Source: an uncultured Chlamydiae bacterium
Lineage (GTDB): Bacteria > Chlamydiota > Chlamydiia > Chlamydiales > SM23-39
Length of the DNA: 64,000 bases
Direction of reading: 5' to 3'
NCBI GenBank assembly: GCA_963730605.1
Contig: CAVSSM010000011.1
Location: forward strand, 32,001 to 96,000
Program-made: the position numbers and the translations under genes
Notes under the pieces: generated by a model
Told to the model about the DNA's origin: nothing
The model's database searches: none
The model's input: only the letters and a program-made list of their open reading frames with translations
In this document: positions 8,041-51,104 of the stretch, piece after piece
Position numbering within the stretch: position 1 is the first letter of the stretch
Layout of the letters: each line of letters opens with the position of its first letter

Positions 8041-8498
8041 GAAAAAAAGAAAAGCGGCCCTTCATTTTATTGGAAATCCTCTTGGCCCTGACTCTGGTCA
8101 GCCTATGCGCCATTCCGCTCATCGTCAAGCCGATTGCAGCTTATCGTTTCGAGATGAAAGCGCTCGAAGAGGTGGAAGGAGAGAGGCTGGCCGATTGGAC
8201 TTTTTCAGAGATCAAAGAAGAGATGTTGCAACTCAAGATCCCGTGGGAAAAATTGCCTGCCCTGAGCGAGACGGCCGGCCCCTTTCCTTTAAATCCCGGA
8301 TCGATCCAAGTTCCCGGCAGACAGCCGAAAAAGATCAAACGCTCTTTCACTTTGTATTGCAAAGGGGAAAAAGAAGGGATGGCTGGGCAGACCTACAGGA
8401 TGCTCTATATCAAGATCGAATTCAACCCTGTCCTGTCGAAGAAAAAAAAGACCTACACCTATCGCCTGCCTGTTCAGAGGATTACGAGTCCTGCTTAA
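8037..8498 (+). CDS. Prepilin-like pseudopilin
   Basis: GTG start overlapping the upstream stop; KKEKRPFILLEILLALTLV prepilin-like N-terminus. Confidence 0.65.
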   Translation: MRKKEKRPFILLEILLALTLVSLCAIPLIVKPIAAYRFEMKALEEVEGERLADWTFSEIKEEMLQLKIPWEKLPALSETAGPFPLNPGSIQVPGRQPKKIKRSFTLYCKGEKEGMAGQTYRMLYIKIEFNPVLSKKKKTYTYRLPVQRITSPA

Positions 8499-8500
8499 AA

Positions 8501-10039
8501 TCAGAGTTCCATTAATCTCATGTATTCATTGAGTTCAATCATAAATGCATCTCGATCTACGTCTGGATTACGATCTAGGAATACACCCGCAGCTTGAATG
8601 AGTTGAGCGCGACCTGCACCCTTGTTTTCAACTATCAATCCGGCAACGAGCTCATTTGTTGTTTTTCTGACGCCATCCACATTTACACCTTTAAGGCGAC
8701 CTTGAAGCACAGCTACGATCTGGCGTTGCGTCTGTCCAGGAGGACAAACCCTGCGGCCATGTTCTATCGAGTCGCTCAAAGCCTTAATTATTCCAAAGCG
8801 GCAATTTTCTTGTTCTTTTTTCTCAGATTGCTCATTCGCAAAAATCCAGAGTCGAGCAATCAACTCTTCTCCGGAAATGCTAAGACGACCGTTATCGATA
8901 GTATAAATAGCATTATTGAGTAAAGGAGCCCAATCCTCGTTCTCGGGTGGGCCATGAAGGGCTTGCTGAGCTGTGTTTTTAATGGCTGAATCACCTGCAT
9001 AAGCGTTTAAATATTGTTTAAATTCTTCTACAGCTGCACTGATCCTCGTTGGGTTGAGCAGTCCCTGATGCTTTCTTAGTAATTCGATGGCTTCTCTTGT
9101 TTTTGCATCGCGGCTACCATGATGCACATCGATTGCATTGTGCCCTTGCGCTGCCAACTCGGCCATCCCAGCGCAAAAGGGTGGAATCGGTTGATTTAGT
9201 GGTGTTTCCAATATAACGAGCATTCGATGAAGGATAGCTTCATTTTCTAAACCGTTAGCAAGATCTTGAATCTGATGTAATACTCTTTGCATGCGACCTG
9301 CTCTTTCGTTCCCAGCATTTGCAACCGTACCAATTATTAAGCATATCTGTAGGCTATCCATTTGTGGATGAATAAGACGAGATACAAGGTTAATAACTTG
9401 TTCGCGTTCATTTGCAGGGATGCTTGCAACCGAACGAATTATAAAGGATATTCCGATGCCATGCATTTGTGGATGAATAAGACGAGATACAAGGTGAGTA
9501 ACTTGTTCACGTCCATTTACAGGGATGCTTGCGGCCTCTGTAAATATAGCTGATATACTCATGGAAAGCATGTGTGGACGAATAAGACGAGATACAAGGT
9601 GAGTAACTTGTTCACGTTCATTTGCAGGGATTCTTGCAATGTCGCTAATTATCTGGAGTATATTGGTGGTGTTACACATTTGTGGGTAACGAGATACAAG
9701 GCCAATAACTTGTCCACGTTCATTTACAGGAATTCTTGCAACGGTTTCAATGATTGCATTACGCGTCCGGTCATCCATGTCCGGAATCATAAGGCCGGAT
9801 GCTTGGGCAGCAATTTGCTCGCGATTATTTGAAACAATCCTACCGCTATTCAAATCTCTTTCTCCCGATGTGTTTCTGCTTGAGGCGATGGCCCACAAAC
9901 AACCGATCCCTCCGATAGCAGTAAGGGCCAGCCCAATCGCTTCCATTTGATAAGCGACCGCAAGACCTGCCCCTCCTACACACCCAGCCACAAATTTGCA
10001 ATATCCCATTGTATTCTGGATTCTTATCCCTATTGACAT
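8501..10039 (-). CDS. Repeat-containing effector-like protein, paralog 1 (about 5 x 35-aa repeats)
   Basis: Low-GC 512 aa ORF; N-terminal hydrophobic hairpin, IPANEREQV repeats, C-terminal domain shared with paralog 2. Confidence 0.8.
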   Translation of the reverse strand: MSIGIRIQNTMGYCKFVAGCVGGAGLAVAYQMEAIGLALTAIGGIGCLWAIASSRNTSGERDLNSGRIVSNNREQIAAQASGLMIPDMDDRTRNAIIETVARIPVNERGQVIGLVSRYPQMCNTTNILQIISDIARIPANEREQVTHLVSRLIRPHMLSMSISAIFTEAASIPVNGREQVTHLVSRLIHPQMHGIGISFIIRSVASIPANEREQVINLVSRLIHPQMDSLQICLIIGTVANAGNERAGRMQRVLHQIQDLANGLENEAILHRMLVILETPLNQPIPPFCAGMAELAAQGHNAIDVHHGSRDAKTREAIELLRKHQGLLNPTRISAAVEEFKQYLNAYAGDSAIKNTAQQALHGPPENEDWAPLLNNAIYTIDNGRLSISGEELIARLWIFANEQSEKKEQENCRFGIIKALSDSIEHGRRVCPPGQTQRQIVAVLQGRLKGVNVDGVRKTTNELVAGLIVENKGAGRAQLIQAAGVFLDRNPDVDRDAFMIELNEYMRLMEL

Positions 10040-10180
10040 AAATCCCTATATTATTTTAATGTTAATGTTATAATAATTATGCATGTTTAAAATTATTTTG
10101 TCAACAAATTAATTAATAAAGATAAATTTTTTTATAGACACTGGTTTCCTGATTAAGGAGATATAGAAAACTATAAACTA

Positions 10181-10250
10181 TACCCCAAAGATGCATCATC
10201 TTTGGGGTAGGGCGCCGTCGGATTCACACTTTTTGAGCGGGAGCGGTATA
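10181..10250. repeat. 13-bp perfect hairpin followed by the right end of a family A element
   Basis: TACCCCAAAGATG-CAT-CATCTTTGGGGTA, then GATTCACACTTTTTGAGCGGGAGCGGTATA. Confidence 0.75.
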
Positions 10251-10252
10251 AA

Positions 10253-10416
10253 CTCGACTTTGTACAATTTTGTGACAGCATCTTCGAGAGAATCGCTGGC
10301 CTTTTTTCCTTTTTTTGCTCATAAATAGTGCCTTCGGCTATGAATTTCGCAAAAAAAGAAAAAAATTGCAGAGCGCTTCCTCTGGATCTGCTCGCCAAAA
10401 ATTGTACAAAGTCGAG
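10253..10416. mobile_element. Palindromic MITE-like element, family B (164 bp)
   Basis: 19-bp perfect TIR CTCGACTTTGTACAATTTT / AAAATTGTACAAAGTCGAG. Confidence 0.82.
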
Positions 10417-10422
10417 ATAAAA

Positions 10423-12264
10423 TCAGAGTTCCATTAATCTCATGTATTCATTGAGTTCAATCATAAATGCATCTCGATCTACGTCTGGATTACGATCTAG
10501 GAATACACCCGCAGCTTGAATGAGTTGAGCGCGACCTGCACCCTTGTTTTCAACTATCAATCCGGCAACGAGCTCATTTGTTGTTTTTCTGACGCCATCC
10601 ACATTTACACCTTTAAGGCGACCTTGAAGCACAGCTACGACCTGGCGTTGCGTCTGTCCAGGAGGACAAACCCTGCGGCCATGTTCTATCGAGTCGCTCA
10701 AAGCCTTAATTATTCCAAAGCGGCAATTTTCTTGTTCTTTTTTCTCAGATTGCTCATTCGCAAAAATCCAGAGTCGAGCAATCAACTCTTCTCCGGAAAT
10801 GCTAAGACGACCGTTATCGATAGTATAAATAGCATTATTGAGTAAAGGAGCCCAATCCTCGTTCTCGGGTGGGCCATGAAGGGCTTGCTGAGCTGTGTTT
10901 TTAATGGCTGAATCACCTGCATAAGCGTTTAAATATTGTTTAAATTCTTCTACAGCTGCACTGATCCTCGTTGGGTTGAGCAGTCCCTGATGCTTTCTTA
11001 GTAATTCGATGGCTTCTCTTGTTTTTGCATCGCGGCTACCATGATGCACATCGATTGCATGCGCCAACTCGGCCATCCCAGCGCGAAAGGGTGGAATCGG
11101 TGGATTTAGTGGTGTTTCCAATATAACGAGCATTCGATAAAGGATAGCTTCATTTTCTAAACCGTTAGCAAGATCTTGAGGAATCTGATGTAATACTCTT
11201 TGCACGCGAGCTTCTCTTTCGTTCCCAGCACGCGCAACTCTCGCAATTATTCTGCTTCTGTCCAAGGCATCCGTTTCTTGATTAATAAGCCTAAATGCCA
11301 GAGTAATAGCTTGTTCACGTTCATTTACAGGGATGCTCGCAACTGATTCAATTATAGAGTATGTTGCGATGCTAGGCATTTGTGGATGAATAAGGGGAGA
11401 TACAAGATTAATAAATTGTACACGTTCATTTGCAGGGATTCTAGCAAAGGTGGCAATTGTAATGCCGAAATTCGCTCTGTCTTGAGTAAAAAGACGAGAT
11501 GCAAGGTTAATAAATTGTACACGTTCATTTGCAGGGATGCTTGCAACCGCTTTAATTATAAAGTACATTTCAATGCTAGGCATTTGTGGATGAATAAGAC
11601 GAGATGCAAAATCCATAACTTGTTCACGTTCATTTGCAGGGGTGCTTGCAACTATTTGAATGATGAATGGTGTGGATGGGTCGTCTATTCTAGTAATCTG
11701 CAATGCAAGATTCATAACTTGTTCATGTTCATTTGCAGGGGTCCTTGCAAGCGTTTGAATTATCAAGCGTCTCACGGTGATACTCGTTTCTGTATTAATA
11801 AGACGAAATGCAAGGTTCATAACTTGTTCGCGGTTATTTGCTGGGATGCTTGCAACTGTTTTAATTATATTATATCTATCGCTGCTAAAAAGCGTTCCTG
11901 CTGGAGGCAAAAAACTAAGTGCAAGGTCAATAACTTGCTTGCGATCATGCGCGGGGATTCTTGCAACGGTTTCAATGATTGCATTACGCATCGGGGCATC
12001 CATGTCTGGATGTATAAGACCAGATGCTTGGGCAGCAATTTGCTCGCGATTATTTGAAACAATCCTACCGTTATTCAAATCTCTTTCTCCCGATGTGTTT
12101 CTGCTTGAGGCGATGGCCCATAAACAACCGATCCCTCCGATAGCAGTAAGGGCCAGCCCAATCGCTCCCATTTGATAAGCGACCGCAAGACCTGCCCCTC
12201 CTACACACCCAGCCGCCAATTTGCAATATTCCATTGTATTCTGGATTCTTATCCCTATTGACAT
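10423..12264 (-). CDS. Repeat-containing effector-like protein, paralog 2 (about 8 x 35-aa repeats)
   Basis: 613 aa ORF with the same architecture as 8501-10039. Confidence 0.8.
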   Translation of the reverse strand: MSIGIRIQNTMEYCKLAAGCVGGAGLAVAYQMGAIGLALTAIGGIGCLWAIASSRNTSGERDLNNGRIVSNNREQIAAQASGLIHPDMDAPMRNAIIETVARIPAHDRKQVIDLALSFLPPAGTLFSSDRYNIIKTVASIPANNREQVMNLAFRLINTETSITVRRLIIQTLARTPANEHEQVMNLALQITRIDDPSTPFIIQIVASTPANEREQVMDFASRLIHPQMPSIEMYFIIKAVASIPANERVQFINLASRLFTQDRANFGITIATFARIPANERVQFINLVSPLIHPQMPSIATYSIIESVASIPVNEREQAITLAFRLINQETDALDRSRIIARVARAGNEREARVQRVLHQIPQDLANGLENEAILYRMLVILETPLNPPIPPFRAGMAELAHAIDVHHGSRDAKTREAIELLRKHQGLLNPTRISAAVEEFKQYLNAYAGDSAIKNTAQQALHGPPENEDWAPLLNNAIYTIDNGRLSISGEELIARLWIFANEQSEKKEQENCRFGIIKALSDSIEHGRRVCPPGQTQRQVVAVLQGRLKGVNVDGVRKTTNELVAGLIVENKGAGRAQLIQAAGVFLDRNPDVDRDAFMIELNEYMRLMEL

Positions 12265-12383
12265 AAATCCCTATATTAGTTTTTAATGTTATAATAATTA
12301 TGAATATTTCAAATTATTTTGTCAACAAATTTAATTAACAAAAACTAGTTTCTTTATAGACACTGGTTTCCCGATTAAGAAGA

Positions 12384-19330: not shown

Positions 19331-22199
19331 TTAATGCTGAATGAATTGTTTTTGCCGCTGTACTTTCGAGAGCGCCTCTTGCAATTTTTGCTGGTGGGAT
19401 TGAGGGACCATCTCGAAGCGGAAGATATCGCGGGCGATCCCCTCCCTCAAGCGGATCGAAAAAGCTTCGAAAAGAGCAAACGATTCGTGTTTGAATTCGA
19501 GAAGGGGGTCTTTTTGACCTACGGTGCGCATATGGACATCGGAGCGGAGATGGTCGATGTGGAGGAGATGCTCCTGCCAGAGTTGGTCGATTTTCCGCGC
19601 CATTAGGTTGCGGATCACCTCGCCCAGGACATTTTGCGCCTTTTCAGCATCGGGAATGTCGGGACGATAGTGCACCAGCAGCTCGCGCTGAAAAAGGAGC
19701 TTTTGGCGGAAGGCGGCGATAACTTTAGCGGCCGCCTTCTCATCCTGGTCGCAGTCGGCGGTTTCCAGGCTCACCGGAAAATGATTCATGAGGGCTGCAG
19801 TCAACTGCTCAGGGCTGCCCGTTTTTTCCTGCGGGTGTGATGCGGCCATGTGACTGACGACAGCTTGCAGGATGTCTTCGGCGATCTCGATCGGCTTTTC
19901 GGCAAAGAGGAGCTCGTTGCGGAAAGCGTAGACCTCTTTCCTCTGCTTATTCATCACATCGTCGTATTCAAGAGTATGCTTACGGATGGAATAGTTGCGT
20001 TGTTCGACCCGCTTTTGCGCCGTTTCGATCGACTTGTTAAGCACTTTCGCCGAGATCGGCTCTCCTTCCGGAGGGCGGAACCTTTGCAGCAGGGAGGTCA
20101 TCCGGGGGGAGGCGAAGAGGCGCATAAGGGGGTCTTCAAAAGAGACGTAGAATTTGGAGGAGCCGGGGTCGCCGAGACGCCCTCCCCGGCCGCGGAGCTG
20201 CCGGTCGATCCTGCGGGAGTGATGGCGGGTCGTGCCGATCACATGGAGGCCGCCGAGCTCGCGCACTCCCTCTTTCAGTTTGATGTCGGTTCCGCGGCCG
20301 GCCATATTGGTGGCGAGCGTGATCGCGCCCATCTTGCCCGCATCGGCGATGATTTCGGCCTCTTTTGCGTGGTTCTTTGCATTGAGGATCGTGTGCTCGA
20401 GTTTGTTCTGCTTGAGGATGCGAGAGAGCTTTTCCGATGTTTCCACCGATTCGGTGCCGATGAGGATGGGACGCCCCTTTTCGTGGATTTCCTTGATCTC
20501 CTTGAGGATCGCGTTATATTTTTCCCGCTCGGTCATATAGATCTCGTCATCTCTATCGATTCTCTGGCAGGAGCGGTAGGTAGGGATTTCGAGAACTTGG
20601 AGTTTGTAGATTTCTTTGAATTCATTCGCCTCGGTCATGGCCGTTCCGGTCATGCCCGAGAGCCTTTCGTACATGCGGAAGTAGTTTTGCAGCGTAATCG
20701 TGGCATAGGTTTGCGTTTCGCCCTGGATGGCGACGTCTTCTTTCGCTTCGATCGCTTGGTGAAGGCCATCGGAAAAGCGGCGTCCGGGCTGCGGGCCGCC
20801 CCGTGTTTTCGTCGATGATGACGATCTTGTGGTCCTGGACGATGTAATCGATGTCTTTTTCCATGAGGAGATGGGCGCGGAGCATCTGCCGTAAGTTGTG
20901 GGAGCGCTCTTTGCGCTTGGCGTCGTTTTCGCGTAAACCAATCTTGGCTGTCATTTTTTCTTGTTCATTCAACGAGCCGTTTTGATCGATGACGGCATAT
21001 TCGTGCCCGAGGTCAAGCATGGTGAAATCATCAGCTCCGGACCCGTTTTGGAATTCGCTCCATGCCTGGATCCCTTTGTCGGTCAGCTCATATTCGTTGT
21101 TTCTTTCATCGACGACCATATAGAGCTCAGCGAGAGCGGCGAATTTTTCCTCTTTATTCTGTTCGCCGAAGTAGTAGGTTTCCCAGTTGTCGATCTCTTG
21201 CGCGAAGATCGGGGTTTTCCTTGATCCGCTTCAGGATCTTGTTGCGCGGCGTTCCCTTGTTGACGAGCCACAATTTCCGGAAGGCTTCTTTTTTCTTCTC
21301 TTCGTCTTCTTTGCCAAGCTTCTGTGGCGCTTCCTGGTTTTCTTCGATGAGATGCAAGCGATTCGAGAATTTTGCGCGCTTCGGTCGCCAGCCGGTTGCA
21401 TGAGTCTCGCTGGATGCGGACGAGATGGGCCACGCCCTCTTTCAGTTCATCGTACATCTGGCGGCTTTCGGGGACGGGTCCTGAAATGATGAGCGGGGTG
21501 CGCGCTTCGTCGATCAGGATCGAATCGATCTCGTCGACCATCGCGAAATAATGCCCCTCGCTGCACTTGCTCGTTTCGATTCATCGACATCGAATTGTCG
21601 CGGAGGTAGTCGAACCCGAATTCGGAAGCAGTGCCGTACACGATGTCGCTTGCGTACGTTTCTTTGCGCCGGTGGAGAGGAACATCATTCGTCAAATAGG
21701 AAACGGTCATCCCGAGGCTCCGGAAGATCGAGCCGATCCATTCACAGTCGCGCTTGGCGAGATAGTCGTTGACGGTGACAAGGTGGACCGGCTTCCCGGT
21801 CAAGGCATGGAGATAGAGTGGCATCGAGGCGGTGAGGGTTTTTCCTTCGCCCGTCTGCATTTCAGCGATCGAGCCATAGAACATCGCGATCGCGCCCAGG
21901 ATCTGGACGTCGTAGGGAATCATGTCCCACTTTTGCTCATAGCCCGAGACGTGGACGTCAGTGCCGCAAAGGCGCCGGCAGACGTTCTTGACCGCACCGA
22001 ACGCCTCCGGGAGAAGCGATTCCAAAGGTTCCCCTTTCGCTAACCGCTCCTTGAATTCAACCGTCTTCGCTGCAATTTGGACATCGCTTAAGCTGCGGTA
22101 TTTTTCTTCCCAAGCGTTCACCTGAGGCACAAGGCGCCAATACCGGTTCAAAAAACGGGATTGGTGTGTTCCGAAGATTTTTTTTAAGAGACCAAACAT
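19331..22199 (-). CDS. secA: Preprotein translocase SecA, broken into 5 ORFs by frameshifts (probably assembly errors)
   Basis: [39 protein letters not shown] and [10 protein letters not shown] motifs lie in successive frames. Confidence 0.92.
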
Positions 22200-22362
22200 A
22201 TACTGCTCCCACCCAAAAAATGTGAATCTGCCGGCGTCAGCTTGGCAGCATATTTTTGGTCTTCACTTCGGGCCGTGTCTATCAACACGTCCCTCGTTCT
22301 AGACACAAAAATCTGCGCCGCTTCCTGGGCATTTTTCACACTTTTTGAGCGGTCGCAGTATA
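22199..22362 (-). mobile_element. Palindromic MITE-like element, family A, copy 2 (164 bp)
   Basis: Reverse-complement near-copy of 7104-7268; ends TATACTG...CAGTATA and abuts the secA ATG. Confidence 0.85.
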
Positions 22363-46024: not shown

Positions 46025-47059
46025 ATGAGATTTTTCCCTCTCGCCTTTTTGCTCGTCGCGGGCTGCAGCAGTCCCTACATGGGAAAGGATCTGTTTGGAG
46101 CGGATGAATTCGTTCTCGACTCTTACAAGATCCGCGAGGGAAAATTTTCCATTTTAGAAATGGAAGGGAAAGAACCGGGGGAGCTCGATGATTCGATGCT
46201 CAACGAATACCAGGACAAAATTCATGAAGACGATGTCCTGCAGGTGGCGGTTTATAACCCGAAGCGGAAAGATGTGGCAGACGCGGTGGAATATATCGGC
46301 AGCCGGATCGGATATCGGGTCGTCAACGGTGAAATTTCCCTGCCCGACCTGCCGCCTGTAACTGTCGCGGAACTGACTCTCGACCAGGCGAAGGAAAAGA
46401 TCCAAGTGCTCTACCATGAACATATCCGCGATACGGAGGTCTTCGTCACCTATAAAGACAGGATCGCAAGAAAAGTGGAACTGGCAGGCCTTGTTTCGCT
46501 TCCCAGCGTTCCTGTCGACGGGAAAATCCGGCTGTTCGATGTACTTTCCAAAGCTCGGATCCCTACCGAGGCGAACCTCTTCAAAAGCTACATCATCCGG
46601 GACGGCTCTTTTCTTCCCGTCGATATGAACAAGCTCATGAAAGAAGGGGACATGTCACAAAACATCGTCGTGCGAGGAGGGGATAAAATCTACATTGCCG
46701 AGCCGTCCGCGGCGACCTTGATGGTCATGGGAGAAGTGGGAAGAGAGCGGGTCGTCAATCTCCCATCCGGTTTTATGCCGCTCCGGCAGGCCTTGGCCGA
46801 ATCGGGCGGGATCCCTTACACGGGGGATAAGTCCTATATCCAGGTGATCCGCGGCAATATCGCCAAACCGAAAATCTATACGTTGAGCTGGGAGCATGTT
46901 ATTCATCTGCCGAATGACAGCCTTCTCCTGATGCCGGGCGATATCGTCTATGTCGCCGCGAAGCCGATCACTGAATGGAACCGGTTCATTTCGCAGCTTC
47001 TGCCCATCTTTGGAGGATTCGATGTGATCAGCAAACAAATGCAATTGTTCGTGCCATGA
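46025..47059 (+). CDS. wza: Wza-like polysaccharide export lipoprotein
   Basis: LVAGC lipobox; GEISLP...LTL export motif; PGDIVYV...WNRFISQLLP C-terminus. Confidence 0.82.
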   Translation: MRFFPLAFLLVAGCSSPYMGKDLFGADEFVLDSYKIREGKFSILEMEGKEPGELDDSMLNEYQDKIHEDDVLQVAVYNPKRKDVADAVEYIGSRIGYRVVNGEISLPDLPPVTVAELTLDQAKEKIQVLYHEHIRDTEVFVTYKDRIARKVELAGLVSLPSVPVDGKIRLFDVLSKARIPTEANLFKSYIIRDGSFLPVDMNKLMKEGDMSQNIVVRGGDKIYIAEPSAATLMVMGEVGRERVVNLPSGFMPLRQALAESGGIPYTGDKSYIQVIRGNIAKPKIYTLSWEHVIHLPNDSLLLMPGDIVYVAAKPITEWNRFISQLLPIFGGFDVISKQMQLFVP

Positions 47060-50000
47060 AGCATCAGAAAAGGCCGCTTCACGATCCCGATGAGAGGGTA
47101 TTCACCCTATTTGATGTAAAACGGCTTTACTTGAGCCAAAAGAAGAAAATTCTCAGAGCTTCTTTTTGGGGAGCTCTTCTTGCGTTCAGTTTCATTTTGA
47201 TCAGGTCTGTTCCAAAATATCAAGTTTCTGCGACTTTTAAAGAGGCTCCCAAATCCATCGAGGGGACAGGAGGCCTGGAAAAGCTTCTTCTCTCAAATGG
47301 AAGCGCAAGCTCTCAAGAGTCTCAAACAGCCACTTTGATCCAGTCCAATCAAGTCTTAAAACCTCTGGTCGTCCGGATGGGCACCCAAGCTACGGTGCGC
47401 AAAGCGGGCCTTTTGTCTCGGGTCTATAAGAGGATCAGGGACAATATCCTTTCCGAGAGAGGGCTTAGCTTAAGCGATGTCGATGATTTCGCCTTCCAGA
47501 ACGTTGTTTACGATGGGGAGAAAACACTAACATATAGCCTCAGGTTTGAAGATTCTGAACATTTTTCTATTGGGTCTGGAAAAAAAACAATTGCTTCGGG
47601 ATCGCTCGGCTCTTGCGTACGTTTGCCTGAGGCAGAGCTAACGATTGTCAAAGTTCCAAAAGGGCTTAAGGTCGGGACTCATTACTCCCTTTCTATTCAA
47701 CCTTGGGTTTCTGCAGTGAATGCGATCCGTTCCAATTTTCGGATAAAGTGCCTCAAACAGCAAAAATCGATTCATGAACTCAAGTTTTTCCATAGGGACC
47801 GATATTTTGGGACGGAGCTTTTGAATGCGTTGACGGAAGAATATCGGAGATATTTAAAGCGGGACCATGATCAGGTTGTCCACGAGCAGCTCAGTTATTT
47901 GCAGCAGAAACAAGAAGAAATATGTGCCAACATGTCCTCGGTTTTCGACGAGTATACAGAATATTTGCAAACCAATCTCAGCCGATCGGGACAATTGGGC
48001 TTAACACAAGAGATCGGAGGAATCACTAAGGAATGCAATGTGCTTGCTAATAAAATCTCTTCGATCGACTTGGAGCTGGATCGGTTAGTTCGAATGGAAG
48101 TGGATCAAAAAGCATTTGTTCCAATGGATGATACTCCTTTTTCACGCTCTCTCAAAGATACCTTGAGCGCAATATCGGAGTTGAAACAGCAGCGCGATTT
48201 AATCGAGTTGTCATTGCCATCTCAAAGCCGCGCTCTTAATGAGCTGCAGTATGAAAACAAAAAAGGGGAATTGAAAGAGGTTCGAGACCAGCTTTGCGCG
48301 ATGCAGCATCTTCTCGATGGAATTGAAAAGCATACGCCGCTTTCTCAGGACGCGTTATTCGATGCGGGAGAATATCTCGGAGCTTGGGCTGGCCGTTTAG
48401 CTGATTCCCAAGAGGAAGACAGAAAAGGGCTGGCTGAGTATCTCGAAAACGCCGTCCGGCTTCTTTCTATGCAAGAAAAAATGGTTCAGGAACAAATCCA
48501 TTATGCCCACGACACTCCAGCCGCGTTCAAAGGCATCGATTTAACGACGGCCCGGGCTCTTTTCCTAGAATACTACAAAAAGCTCGATCAAATCGCAGAA
48601 GGGGTAAGCCATTTTTCTCGCTTAGCGGATGAAATTGAGAGAGGCGATTTCGAGATCAGTTCTTTAAGCGCCGTGCTCTTGGATCCCCTAAGCCAGCGTC
48701 TGATTCAACAAGCAAGCGAGATTGCCCTCAAATTGAAGGATGAAAAACATCATAGCGAAAAAGAAGGAAGCCGGTGGGCAGAGGAGTTGTCGCTGCAAAA
48801 AAAAATCCTCAAAGAACATCTGGATCAACTTTTTAAACTCGAACAAGTGAAATCCGATCTAGTCCAAAATAGGATCGATGCTTTGCAGGCAATCAGATTC
48901 GGCTCCATTTCGGGGCAAATTTCCGTTTTGCAAGAGAGACTGGCCGATTCCGTCAAAGAGCGGAAGACCGCGCTTTTGAAGGAGAAAACAATCCTGGAAG
49001 AAAAAGTGAGGCAAATTCTAAATGGCCTCACCGATATTCCCGAAAGGTGGCGAAGGGAGAAATGGCTGAACTTAAAGAGCCAGATGGGGATCAAAATGGT
49101 CCAAGGGTTGACCGAACTTGTCGAATCAAAGACAATTAGCTCTCATCTCCACCATGTCGAATCAAAACCTCTCGATATTGCGACCCTTCCTACCACTCCC
49201 TGTTCCCCAGGGCTTTTGGTCAAAGCCTTCCTGGGTGCCATGCTGGCCGGATTCTTTGTGTTCTCCCGCGCCTTTCTCGGGGCGGTTTTGAAGGGATTCC
49301 CCTCAACGAAAGAAAAACTTTGTGCGATGGGATACCCTGTTCTCGGCGAGATCTCAACGGTTTGCGATGGTCCCGGGACAGAGCCTCGCGGGGCGGATCT
49401 GGAAGCCCTTCGGCAAATATTTCTTTTCCTCGACAAAGAGCCCATACCGGGAGTGATTGAAAAAACGGGAATTGGCTCCTCAGATTTTTCAGCTGGAGCG
49501 AGGGACATGGCCAAAGGCAAGGCTGCGGAAACACGAGAAGGTCCAGTGGACCTTCGCAGTGCGGAGCAGATGAGCACAGCGAATTGCCTCGGAAGCGAAG
49601 ATGAAAAATCTGAGTCAAAGCCGACGCCGCACCAAAACCGATTTTTCAATCGCGAGCGGTATAAAGTGAAAGTTGTTGGCCTTATCGAAGGCAAAGGCCC
49701 CGATTATTCTTTTGCGCTGGCAGAGCATTTTTCCCGCATGTCCTTGCGCCCACTGGTCATCCGATGCGATTTCAACATGAAGTTCAACCGGGAAGACCTG
49801 CCGGGGGTCTTGCAGGTTTGGAAAGAGGAGATCTCCAGCCCACCTCTCAAGAGGAGGCAGGGCTACGATCTTCTCACGTCCGGCGGATTCACCCCTTACG
49901 GGGCGGAAGTCATCCGGTCGCTTGCATTTCAAAACTCACTTGATAAGTTTAAAAAAGAGTATGACTTTGTCTTGATGGTCTTTCGCTCGCCGCTGAACCT

Positions 50001-50148
50001 CGCGGACAGCTTGGCGCCTCTTTCCCTTTGCGACTATGCGATCGTCACCGTCTCTGGAGAGCCAACGGAGCAGTTGACACCGTTTATCGATTGGGCTTAC
50101 CATGGAGACATGTGCCGTTTAGCCATTCTCACAGCGAGCTCTCCATGA
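47056..50148 (+). CDS. Wzc/GumC-like polysaccharide co-polymerase with degenerate kinase domain and a 73-aa insert
   Basis: Two TM helices flanking a long coiled-coil region; follows wza with ATGA overlap. Confidence 0.75.
49444..49662. mobile_element. 219-bp palindromic element inserted in frame in the Wzc-like gene
   Basis: 25-bp TIR with 20 matches; internal blocks shared with family A. Confidence 0.82.
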
Positions 50149-51104
50149 CAGGCAAGCGCAAAAAAATTCTTGTAGCAGGAGGAGCAGGATTCCTAGGCTC
50201 TCATCTCTCTCTGAGGCTTTTGAAAGAAGGCAACGAGGTTCTATGTGTCGATAATTTCTACACAGGCAGCCGCGATAATTTGCTCTCTTTAATGGAACAT
50301 CCTCGTTTCGAAGTGATGCGCCACGACATCTGTTTCCCTCTACATGTGGAGGTGGACGAGATCTATAACTTTGCCTGCCCGGCATCCCCTTTCCACTACC
50401 AGCGCGATCCCATCCAGACGGCGAAGACCAGCTTTCTCGGAGCTCTTCACCTCCTCGGATTGGCCAAGCGCCTCAAAATCAAAATCTTTCAAGCCTCGAC
50501 GAGCGAAGTCTACGGCGATCCCCATATCCATCCGCAAACCGAAGAGTATTGGGGCCACGTCAATCCGATCGGCATCCGATCTTGCTATGATGAAGGAAAG
50601 CGGTGCGCTGAAACTCTCTTCTTCGATTATTACCGAGTCCATGGCCTTCGCATTAAAGTCGCACGCATCTTCAACACGTTCGGCCCAAGGATGCATCCGA
50701 ACGATGGCCGAGTTGTCTCCAATTTTATTGTCCAAGCCCTTCGCAATGATCCTATTACCGTATACGGAGAAGGCAAGCAAACCCGATCTTTCTGCTATGT
50801 GGACGATCTGATCGATGCAGTGATTCGGATCATGGATACGCCAGATAGCATCACAGGGCCCTTCAACATTGGGAATCCGACCGAGATGCCAGTCATCGAC
50901 CTTGCGCGGCAAGTTCTGGCCTTAACCGGCTCTTCTTCCAAGATCGAGTTTGTCCCTTTGCCCTCTGACGACCCGAAACAAAGGCGGCCTGACATTCGGT
51001 ATGTAAAGGAAGTTTTAGGATGGGAGCCGAAGGTTCCTTTGCAAGAGGGTCTCAAGGCGACCATCGATCATTTCAGGAGCGTTATTAACCCGCTAGGCAA
51101 ATAA
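50145..51104 (+). CDS. uxs: UDP-glucuronate decarboxylase (UDP-xylose synthase)
   Basis: [22 protein letters not shown] and CYDEGKR motifs. Confidence 0.93.

Follow-up and report, generated by a model that had tools for sequence, protein, structure and literature searches.

Rickettsia palindromic elements (RPEs) are dispersed palindromes found within Rickettsia genes (Ogata et al. 2000, 2002; Abergel et al. 2006, as cited in excerpts of PMC2229807 and PMC10969869). As described in those excerpts, the RPE is a hairpin repeat of 105-146 nt that lies both between genes and in frame in unrelated housekeeping genes, where it encodes a conserved, tolerated-looking peptide. The repeat family described here has these traits in common with RPEs, but belongs to a chlamydial genome, in another phylum, is 219-315 nt long and includes optional internal hairpin modules. 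Its empty sites reveal duplication of a TA target, whereas target duplication by RPEs is listed as '?' in the excerpted PMC2229807. Unlike the RPE case, the chlamydial genome also holds an intact candidate transposase. The insert falls outside RPE-1 to RPE-10 by host and by length, and is set apart by these rather than by sequence comparison.

RUP of Streptococcus pneumoniae and IS630-Spn1 (Oggioni and Claverys 1999, as presented in excerpts of PMC2229807) likewise combine a TA target, IS630-like ends and a proposed mobilisation in trans. However, RUP is intergenic, with each of its six frames closed by stops, whereas in the chlamydial family one frame is open and about half of the copies lie in genes. 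In the same excerpts, ERIC and the 107-bp Correia/NEMIS elements likewise have TA termini, target duplication, a long stem-loop, reading frames fused to host frames and length variants with optional segments, though they are shorter and mostly intergenic, and the likeness drawn here is one of description. According to the excerpted text of this 2007 review (PMC2229807), mobilisation of bacterial MITEs by a transposase was then without experimental support. No published report of in-frame palindromes in Chlamydiae was found in literature searches covering mainly open-access main texts; the excerpted text of PMC13229535 includes nothing on in-frame palindromes, and 'Chlamyd' is absent from the searched text of the reviews PMC10969869 and PMC3184786.

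The 219-nt insertion in a Wzc-like gene

The window, i.e. the whole 64,000-nt stretch of DNA analysed, belongs to genome G000 of an organism identified as chlamydial by the names of homologs and by a Chlam_OMP gene. The features of the locus are as follows.

46025..47059, + strand: Wza-type polysaccharide export lipoprotein gene, upstream
46975..50148, + strand: host ORF of 1057 codons, Wzc-like polysaccharide co-polymerase with a degenerate kinase domain
49443..49444, + strand: left target dinucleotide, CA instead of the expected TA
49444..49662, + strand: insertion, net 219 nt (73 codons), made up of a 217-nt MITE core and one duplicated TA
49444..49468, + strand: left terminal inverted repeat, 16/21 identical to the left end of the resident IS630 (17/21 in a 315-nt copy)
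49521..49586, + strand: internal hairpin module of 66 nt, approximate limits, also in other repeats of the genome
49638..49662, - strand: right terminal inverted repeat, 19/21 identical to the IS630 left end (20/21 in a 315-nt copy)
49662..49663, + strand: right target dinucleotide TA
49690..49710, + strand: degenerate P-loop without GK[ST], reading GKGPDYS; its alignment to the Walker A of Wzc includes a 5-residue gap
50145..51104, + strand: NAD-dependent epimerase/dehydratase gene, downstream

The original prediction, made from the sequence alone, was of a 219-nt palindromic insertion running from codon ATA (49444) to codon TAT (49662), and these limits proved exact and in frame in the ORF at 46975-50148. 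The 20/25 complementarity claimed for the terminal arms was found, and the peptide IPGVIEKTG...NRFFNRERY agrees both in sequence and in its hydrophilic character. Folding of the insert gives a single extended hairpin (-85.4 kcal/mol, z -5.21), with none of 200 shuffles equally stable.

The host protein was called Wzc-like from a profile match to 3la6 (E 8e-13), a fold match to 9i2q (E 3e-11) and the Wza gene upstream; the window copy gave no Pfam match. The database form P0001 measures 1030 aa, so translation probably begins at the ATG located 27 codons downstream of the ORF start. In profile, fold and Wza neighbour, the protein matches the Wzc/BY-kinase co-polymerases (PDB 3la6, 7nhr, 9i2q), but unlike Wzc it has no GK[ST] at Walker A and few C-terminal tyrosines. 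None of the 51 rows of the protein alignment (A2) has GK[ST] at the Walker A position, the three regex matches to this pattern all lying before the first strand and outside the P-loop, and the last 25 residues include at most two tyrosines in 51/51 rows. The host shows neither of the hallmarks of an active BY-kinase, namely a Walker A GK[ST] and a C-terminal tyrosine cluster, and is probably, as judged from its sequence, a pseudokinase with or without the insert. Both the Walker A lysine and the tyrosine tail are absent from the whole chlamydial Wzc-like family, whose members have ~950 aa. The family is likely a kinase-dead co-polymerase. The placement of the insert 'just before the Walker A position' therefore needs qualification: it does adjoin the strand that leads there, but the motif itself is degenerate and its lysine is missing in all 51 rows.

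The host gene was present in 25 of the 31 genomes in a search of relatives. Among 19 non-self loci fetched, 17 cover the insertion site (L012 and L015 stop short of it), and all 17 lack the segment. Of the 37 proteins returned by a protein database search, one is that of the window, 35 are homologs, and the last is unrelated and was matched by way of the insert. The other 50 rows of A2, which comprise 15 genome loci and 35 database proteins that are kin and perhaps in part the same organism twice, all lack the insert, with at most five stray residues per row inside its 73 columns; the single 73-aa gap that had been expected on alignment to orthologs is thus seen. The joined form, in which FLDKEP runs directly into the 12 residues after the insert, can be read in P0002, an insert-free protein 96% identical to the window protein across the first 516 aligned residues. 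In L003 (genome G001), the Wzc-like ORF continues without a stop into the downstream epimerase/dehydratase frame, which may be a fusion or an assembly error.

Both junctions are crossed by contigs assembled from the X2 run, the left one over 49303-49541 and the right one over 49512-49734; the right junction is also crossed, over 49573-49785, by an X4 contig, which comes from another study. None of these contigs spans the entire insert. Given the junctions bridged in X2 and X4, the insertion is not an assembly artefact of one genome. The 219-nt insertion in the Wzc-like gene is real and recent. X2 contigs 10 and 12 (49303-49734) mismatch the window only inside the insert, at 49507, 49509, 49576 and 49585, and two of these four are family-majority bases; an allele, gene conversion, or repeat copies mixed during assembly may account for them.

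The MITE family and its in-frame copies

The genome includes 13 full copies of the element, ranging from 112 to 316 nt, and four partial copies, at unrelated sites. Nine other long copies have 4-12 differences from the window copy across 213-219 positions. In its long form the element spans 315 nt (105 codons); a shorter one, of 264 nt, is without a 51-nt hairpin, and the window copy is additionally without a 45-nt hairpin, its 219-nt length being unique among the copies. Two shorter forms, of 203 and 161 nt, differ by 42 nt, share an A run one base shorter and are missing the 66-nt module at 49521..49586. Each of the four module differences (42, 45, 51 and 66 nt) is a multiple of three, which by simple arithmetic, chosen post hoc, would occur about once in 81 cases if they were independent and random. 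The family is short, lacks a transposase, is bounded by terminal inverted repeats, is dispersed, has empty sites in relatives and forms a stable stem-loop, as is the case for MITEs.

The insert had been thought to be a relative of an intergenic repeat, family A, that became coding sequence. The shared blocks are real but partial (34/45 and 28/38 identities), and as only these two are shared, at about 75%, family A is a cousin and not the source. The claim that a mobile repeat has become coding sequence stands for the reading frame, but not for a family A relative turned coding: judged by its sequence, the insert is an internally shortened, near-identical copy from its own 315-nt TA-targeting MITE family. 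Matches to parts of the element occur in 43 of the 103 genomes that represent the taxonomic family, and a complete 315-nt copy was found, besides G000, only in G003. The single Rfam match is a chance one outside the insert (E 0.26).

Host genes carry six of the 13 full copies in frame, between two codons and always in the same strand and phase. The hosts are the Wzc-like protein, RecD2 helicase, a sulfatase, a secretin, a TLC-family transporter, in which the insert follows codon 3, and a SAM methyltransferase, in which it is near the start. DnaX and an unnamed ORF each hold a partial copy in frame. The insert is absent from the orthologs of RecD2 (4/4), sulfatase (3/3), secretin (3/3, one loosely aligned) and TLC (5/5), while the comparison is less clean for the methyltransferase (2 rows) and for DnaX, where the linker is variable; G003 gave no matches for RecD2 or the methyltransferase. 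Related peptides do thus occur in several other host proteins, as anticipated, and the proposed analogy with RPEs, as a mode of action, is borne out by in-frame copies in several unrelated genes, in one frame, that are absent from orthologs. By this analogy, the chlamydial insert appears to work like Rickettsia palindromic elements.

Frame +0 is the sole open frame in three in-gene or intact 315-nt copies and in both in-gene 264-nt copies, whereas the window copy is also open in one frame of the opposite strand. The common phase of the in-gene copies is attributed to survivorship of one open frame. In 1000 shuffles of the 315-nt majority sequence, 45% had some open frame and 8.6% had frame +0 open, so an open frame alone is unremarkable. 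The excess of lengths divisible by three in a wider census (66 of 118 elements) was dropped as evidence because 27 copies of 162 nt swell the figure, and in family 1 none of 12 copies with a length divisible by three has an open frame. That the element itself was selected to live inside genes, as a coding-compatible transposon lineage with frame-keeping modules, an in-gene share close to that expected of harmless same-sense insertions at codon boundaries, and a live IS630 still moving copies, is an idea we hold only tentatively; if it were true, the modules would keep lengthening peptides already within proteins.

Movement, tolerance and alternative explanations

The MITE ends read TATACC...GGTATA. 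Empty sites with one TA were found for the secretin and TLC genes in G003 and for RecD2 in G002, and two G003 copies occupy sites that are empty, with one TA each, in G000. TA duplication is clean at five site pairs and holds for the family. The G003 empty sites in the Wzc and sulfatase genes are not TA (the Wzc site reads CCT then GAA), and several G003/G000 pairs are too diverged to read. At both the Wzc and sulfatase sites there is a CA/TA asymmetry; the first base of the left CA in the Wzc-like gene falls at the silent third position of a Pro codon, where G003 has T.

The genome also carries 14 copies of a 1121-nt element that are at least 99.7% identical, with a DNA identity of at least 99.9%, and TA-flanked wherever a flank is present, 14/14 with an intact 347-aa ORF. 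The encoded transposase matches Pfam DDE_3 (E 3e-34) and HTH_33, an architecture that we take to be of the IS630 type. An initial reading of these long copies as 393-nt elements was rejected. The left end of the IS630 is identical to the MITE right end at 20/21 bases and to the MITE left end at 17/21 (315-nt copy), and its right end matches the MITE ends at 13-14/21; the MITE ends thus resemble those of a resident IS630, as in RUP. A tblastn search with its transposase identified this IS630 as the only full-length relative in the genome. It occurs in 25 of the 103 genomes, often as short pieces, and was found in none of the five other genus genomes, including G003 with its 315-nt copy, these assemblies being fragmented and 62-96% complete. 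The MITE copies differ by 2-5% and the IS630 copies are near-identical; going by this divergence, the MITE copies are the older, and their burst may have preceded the arrival of this IS630. The resident IS630 transposase is the likely mobiliser in trans.

In the predicted structure, the kinase-like domain has a mean pLDDT of 83 (191 of 285 residues at 90 or above), and the insert, with a pLDDT of 44-58 and no secondary structure, lies between helix 35-48 and strand 127-132; its low pLDDT is partly due to the absence of aligned rows there. The surface loop that had been expected is matched by this model of the Wzc-like domain, which puts the insert in a disordered loop compatible with the host fold. 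A single-sequence prediction (mean pLDDT 37) was set aside. Relative to the family majority, the six in-gene copies have 9 silent and 33 replacement changes (pN/pS 1.12, from small counts), six other copies give a pN/pS of 0.84 (copy C10 excluded as too short), and the window copy has 3 replacement and 0 silent changes. Selection on the inserted peptide was rejected on these ratios, small as the counts are. Given the disordered loop in the model and no detectable selection, the peptide is regarded as a tolerated, neutral passenger. A crude count gave 23,437 in-gene TA sites with T at codon position 3 and 19,614 TA sites outside called genes; with the first count halved for orientation, an in-gene share of ~37% is expected if all such insertions are harmless, and 6/13 was observed. 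As the gene calls (at least 120 codons) are rough, it is concluded only that in-frame copies are not visibly purged.

The most probable explanation, in which we have good confidence, is that an IS630-ended MITE moved in trans into a codon-straddling TA, most likely by means of the resident IS630, and that the gene survives with a neutral peptide. The transposase of the 1121-nt IS630 would act on the non-autonomous MITE, and the TA target would straddle a codon boundary, with T at codon position 3 and A at position 1. Element and duplicated TA would together make a multiple of three with a stop-free sense frame, and because of this length, the absence of a stop and the T at position 3, no host codon would be lost or changed. 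The 73 extra residues, presumably translated, would form a disordered loop connecting the helix to the first strand of the kinase-like domain; the gene would survive with its function retained. Because one genome contains both a protein-coding palindrome of recent date and an intact IS630 in many copies whose ends match, RPE-type movement is open to a direct assay, and it is this pairing, together with the frame-keeping modular build, that goes beyond routine. The occurrence of the same peptide, 73-105 residues long, in a co-polymerase, a helicase, a secretin and a transporter also amounts to a natural insertion-tolerance map, and such inserts disturb the annotation and phylogenies of environmental chlamydiae.

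The same element and frame could have been delivered by another TA-targeting enzyme, either a lost or unassembled IS630 relative or a tolerant blunt T^A inserter, and a genome that is 83% complete and holds at least eight TA-bounded families with different arms leaves room for one. The outer T is kept in 30/37 MITE ends as compared with 27/27 IS630 ends, while the inner bases are kept in 37/37 MITE ends, and this laxity and the CA/TA asymmetry at the Wzc and sulfatase sites both point the same way. Yet the resident IS630 end matches at 20/21, both in-gene T-to-C changes fall at silent third positions, and canonical sites look identical under TA duplication and blunt T^A insertion, so a different enzyme is considered improbable. 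A repeat collapsed into the gene during assembly is largely refuted and hardly credible: the genome is metagenome-derived and no single contig crosses the whole insert, but X2 contigs bridge both junctions and an X4 contig the right one, the 219-nt form is unique among the copies, and frame and codon boundary are preserved.

The insert might instead have inactivated or impaired the Wzc-like protein, leaving an early pseudogene in a weakly selected genome. The very recent date of the insertion and the wealth of mobile elements in the genome would suit such an outcome, and in-frame copies that are not under-represented are compatible with weak purifying selection too. On the other hand, the 1057-codon frame and the operon neighbours are intact, and the 160 codons downstream of the insert differ from G003 by 23 silent and 15 replacement codons, though most of this divergence predates the insertion. 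Related inserts in DnaX, RecD2, the secretin and dehydrogenase E1, and one sister-family insert shared with G003, also speak against loss of function, which we regard as unlikely. Domestication of the peptide or RNA hairpin, such that it regulates the Wzc-like protein or the operon mRNA, is very unlikely. The hairpin is strong in mRNA, the insert adjoins the nucleotide-site strand, and RNA effects of NEMIS and ERIC on mRNA stability are reported in the excerpted PMC2229807, but the peptide is without detectable selection, the window copy has only replacement changes from the majority, a 96%-identical homolog lacks the insert and no Rfam match carries weight.

Sister families and other repeats

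In the wider census of the genome, 118 elements were TA-bounded and 15 of these lay inside long frames, at thresholds that miss the secretin copy and the partial copies. Sister families insert in another phase. Orthologs were compared for five of their hosts, which left out L097, L098, L099, L101, L105 and the ORF at C1 448387-449778. Lineage-specific inserts were found in dehydrogenase E1 (absent in 4/4), a Mur-ligase-domain protein (3/3) and an unnamed protein (3/3). An insert in an E2 linker was also counted as lineage-specific, being absent in G003, with the linker variable in the other three. The insert in L100 (G000 C1:495567-495800) is shared with G003 (L118), and the G000 copy has 24 additional codons, supplied by the hairpin module that is also present in the Wzc insert. 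In a G003 paralog (L120), another element-like peptide occupies this region. In L103 (G000 C2:111385-111546), a 54-codon element lies seven residues before the GDG motif of dehydrogenase E1, a motif presumed to bind thiamine diphosphate. A related element is also in frame in a 685-aa ORF of another genus (L134, G108), between a glycosyltransferase-like part and a second domain, both labelled by eye, and possibly bridges two genes.

Two copies outside genes, at G000 C3:29821-30084 and C7:4637-4952, abut the very end of long frames, which suggests insertion into the TA of stop codons. At one TA site with flanks 95-98% identical, family A is present in G000 (C11:54199-54362, window 22199-22362) and a different 261-nt family in G003 (L045), reflecting either independent insertions or replacement of one element by another. 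Elsewhere in the window, positions 8496-12354 hold two related blocks with tandem units of 105 and 204 nt and a 300-nt exact repeat.
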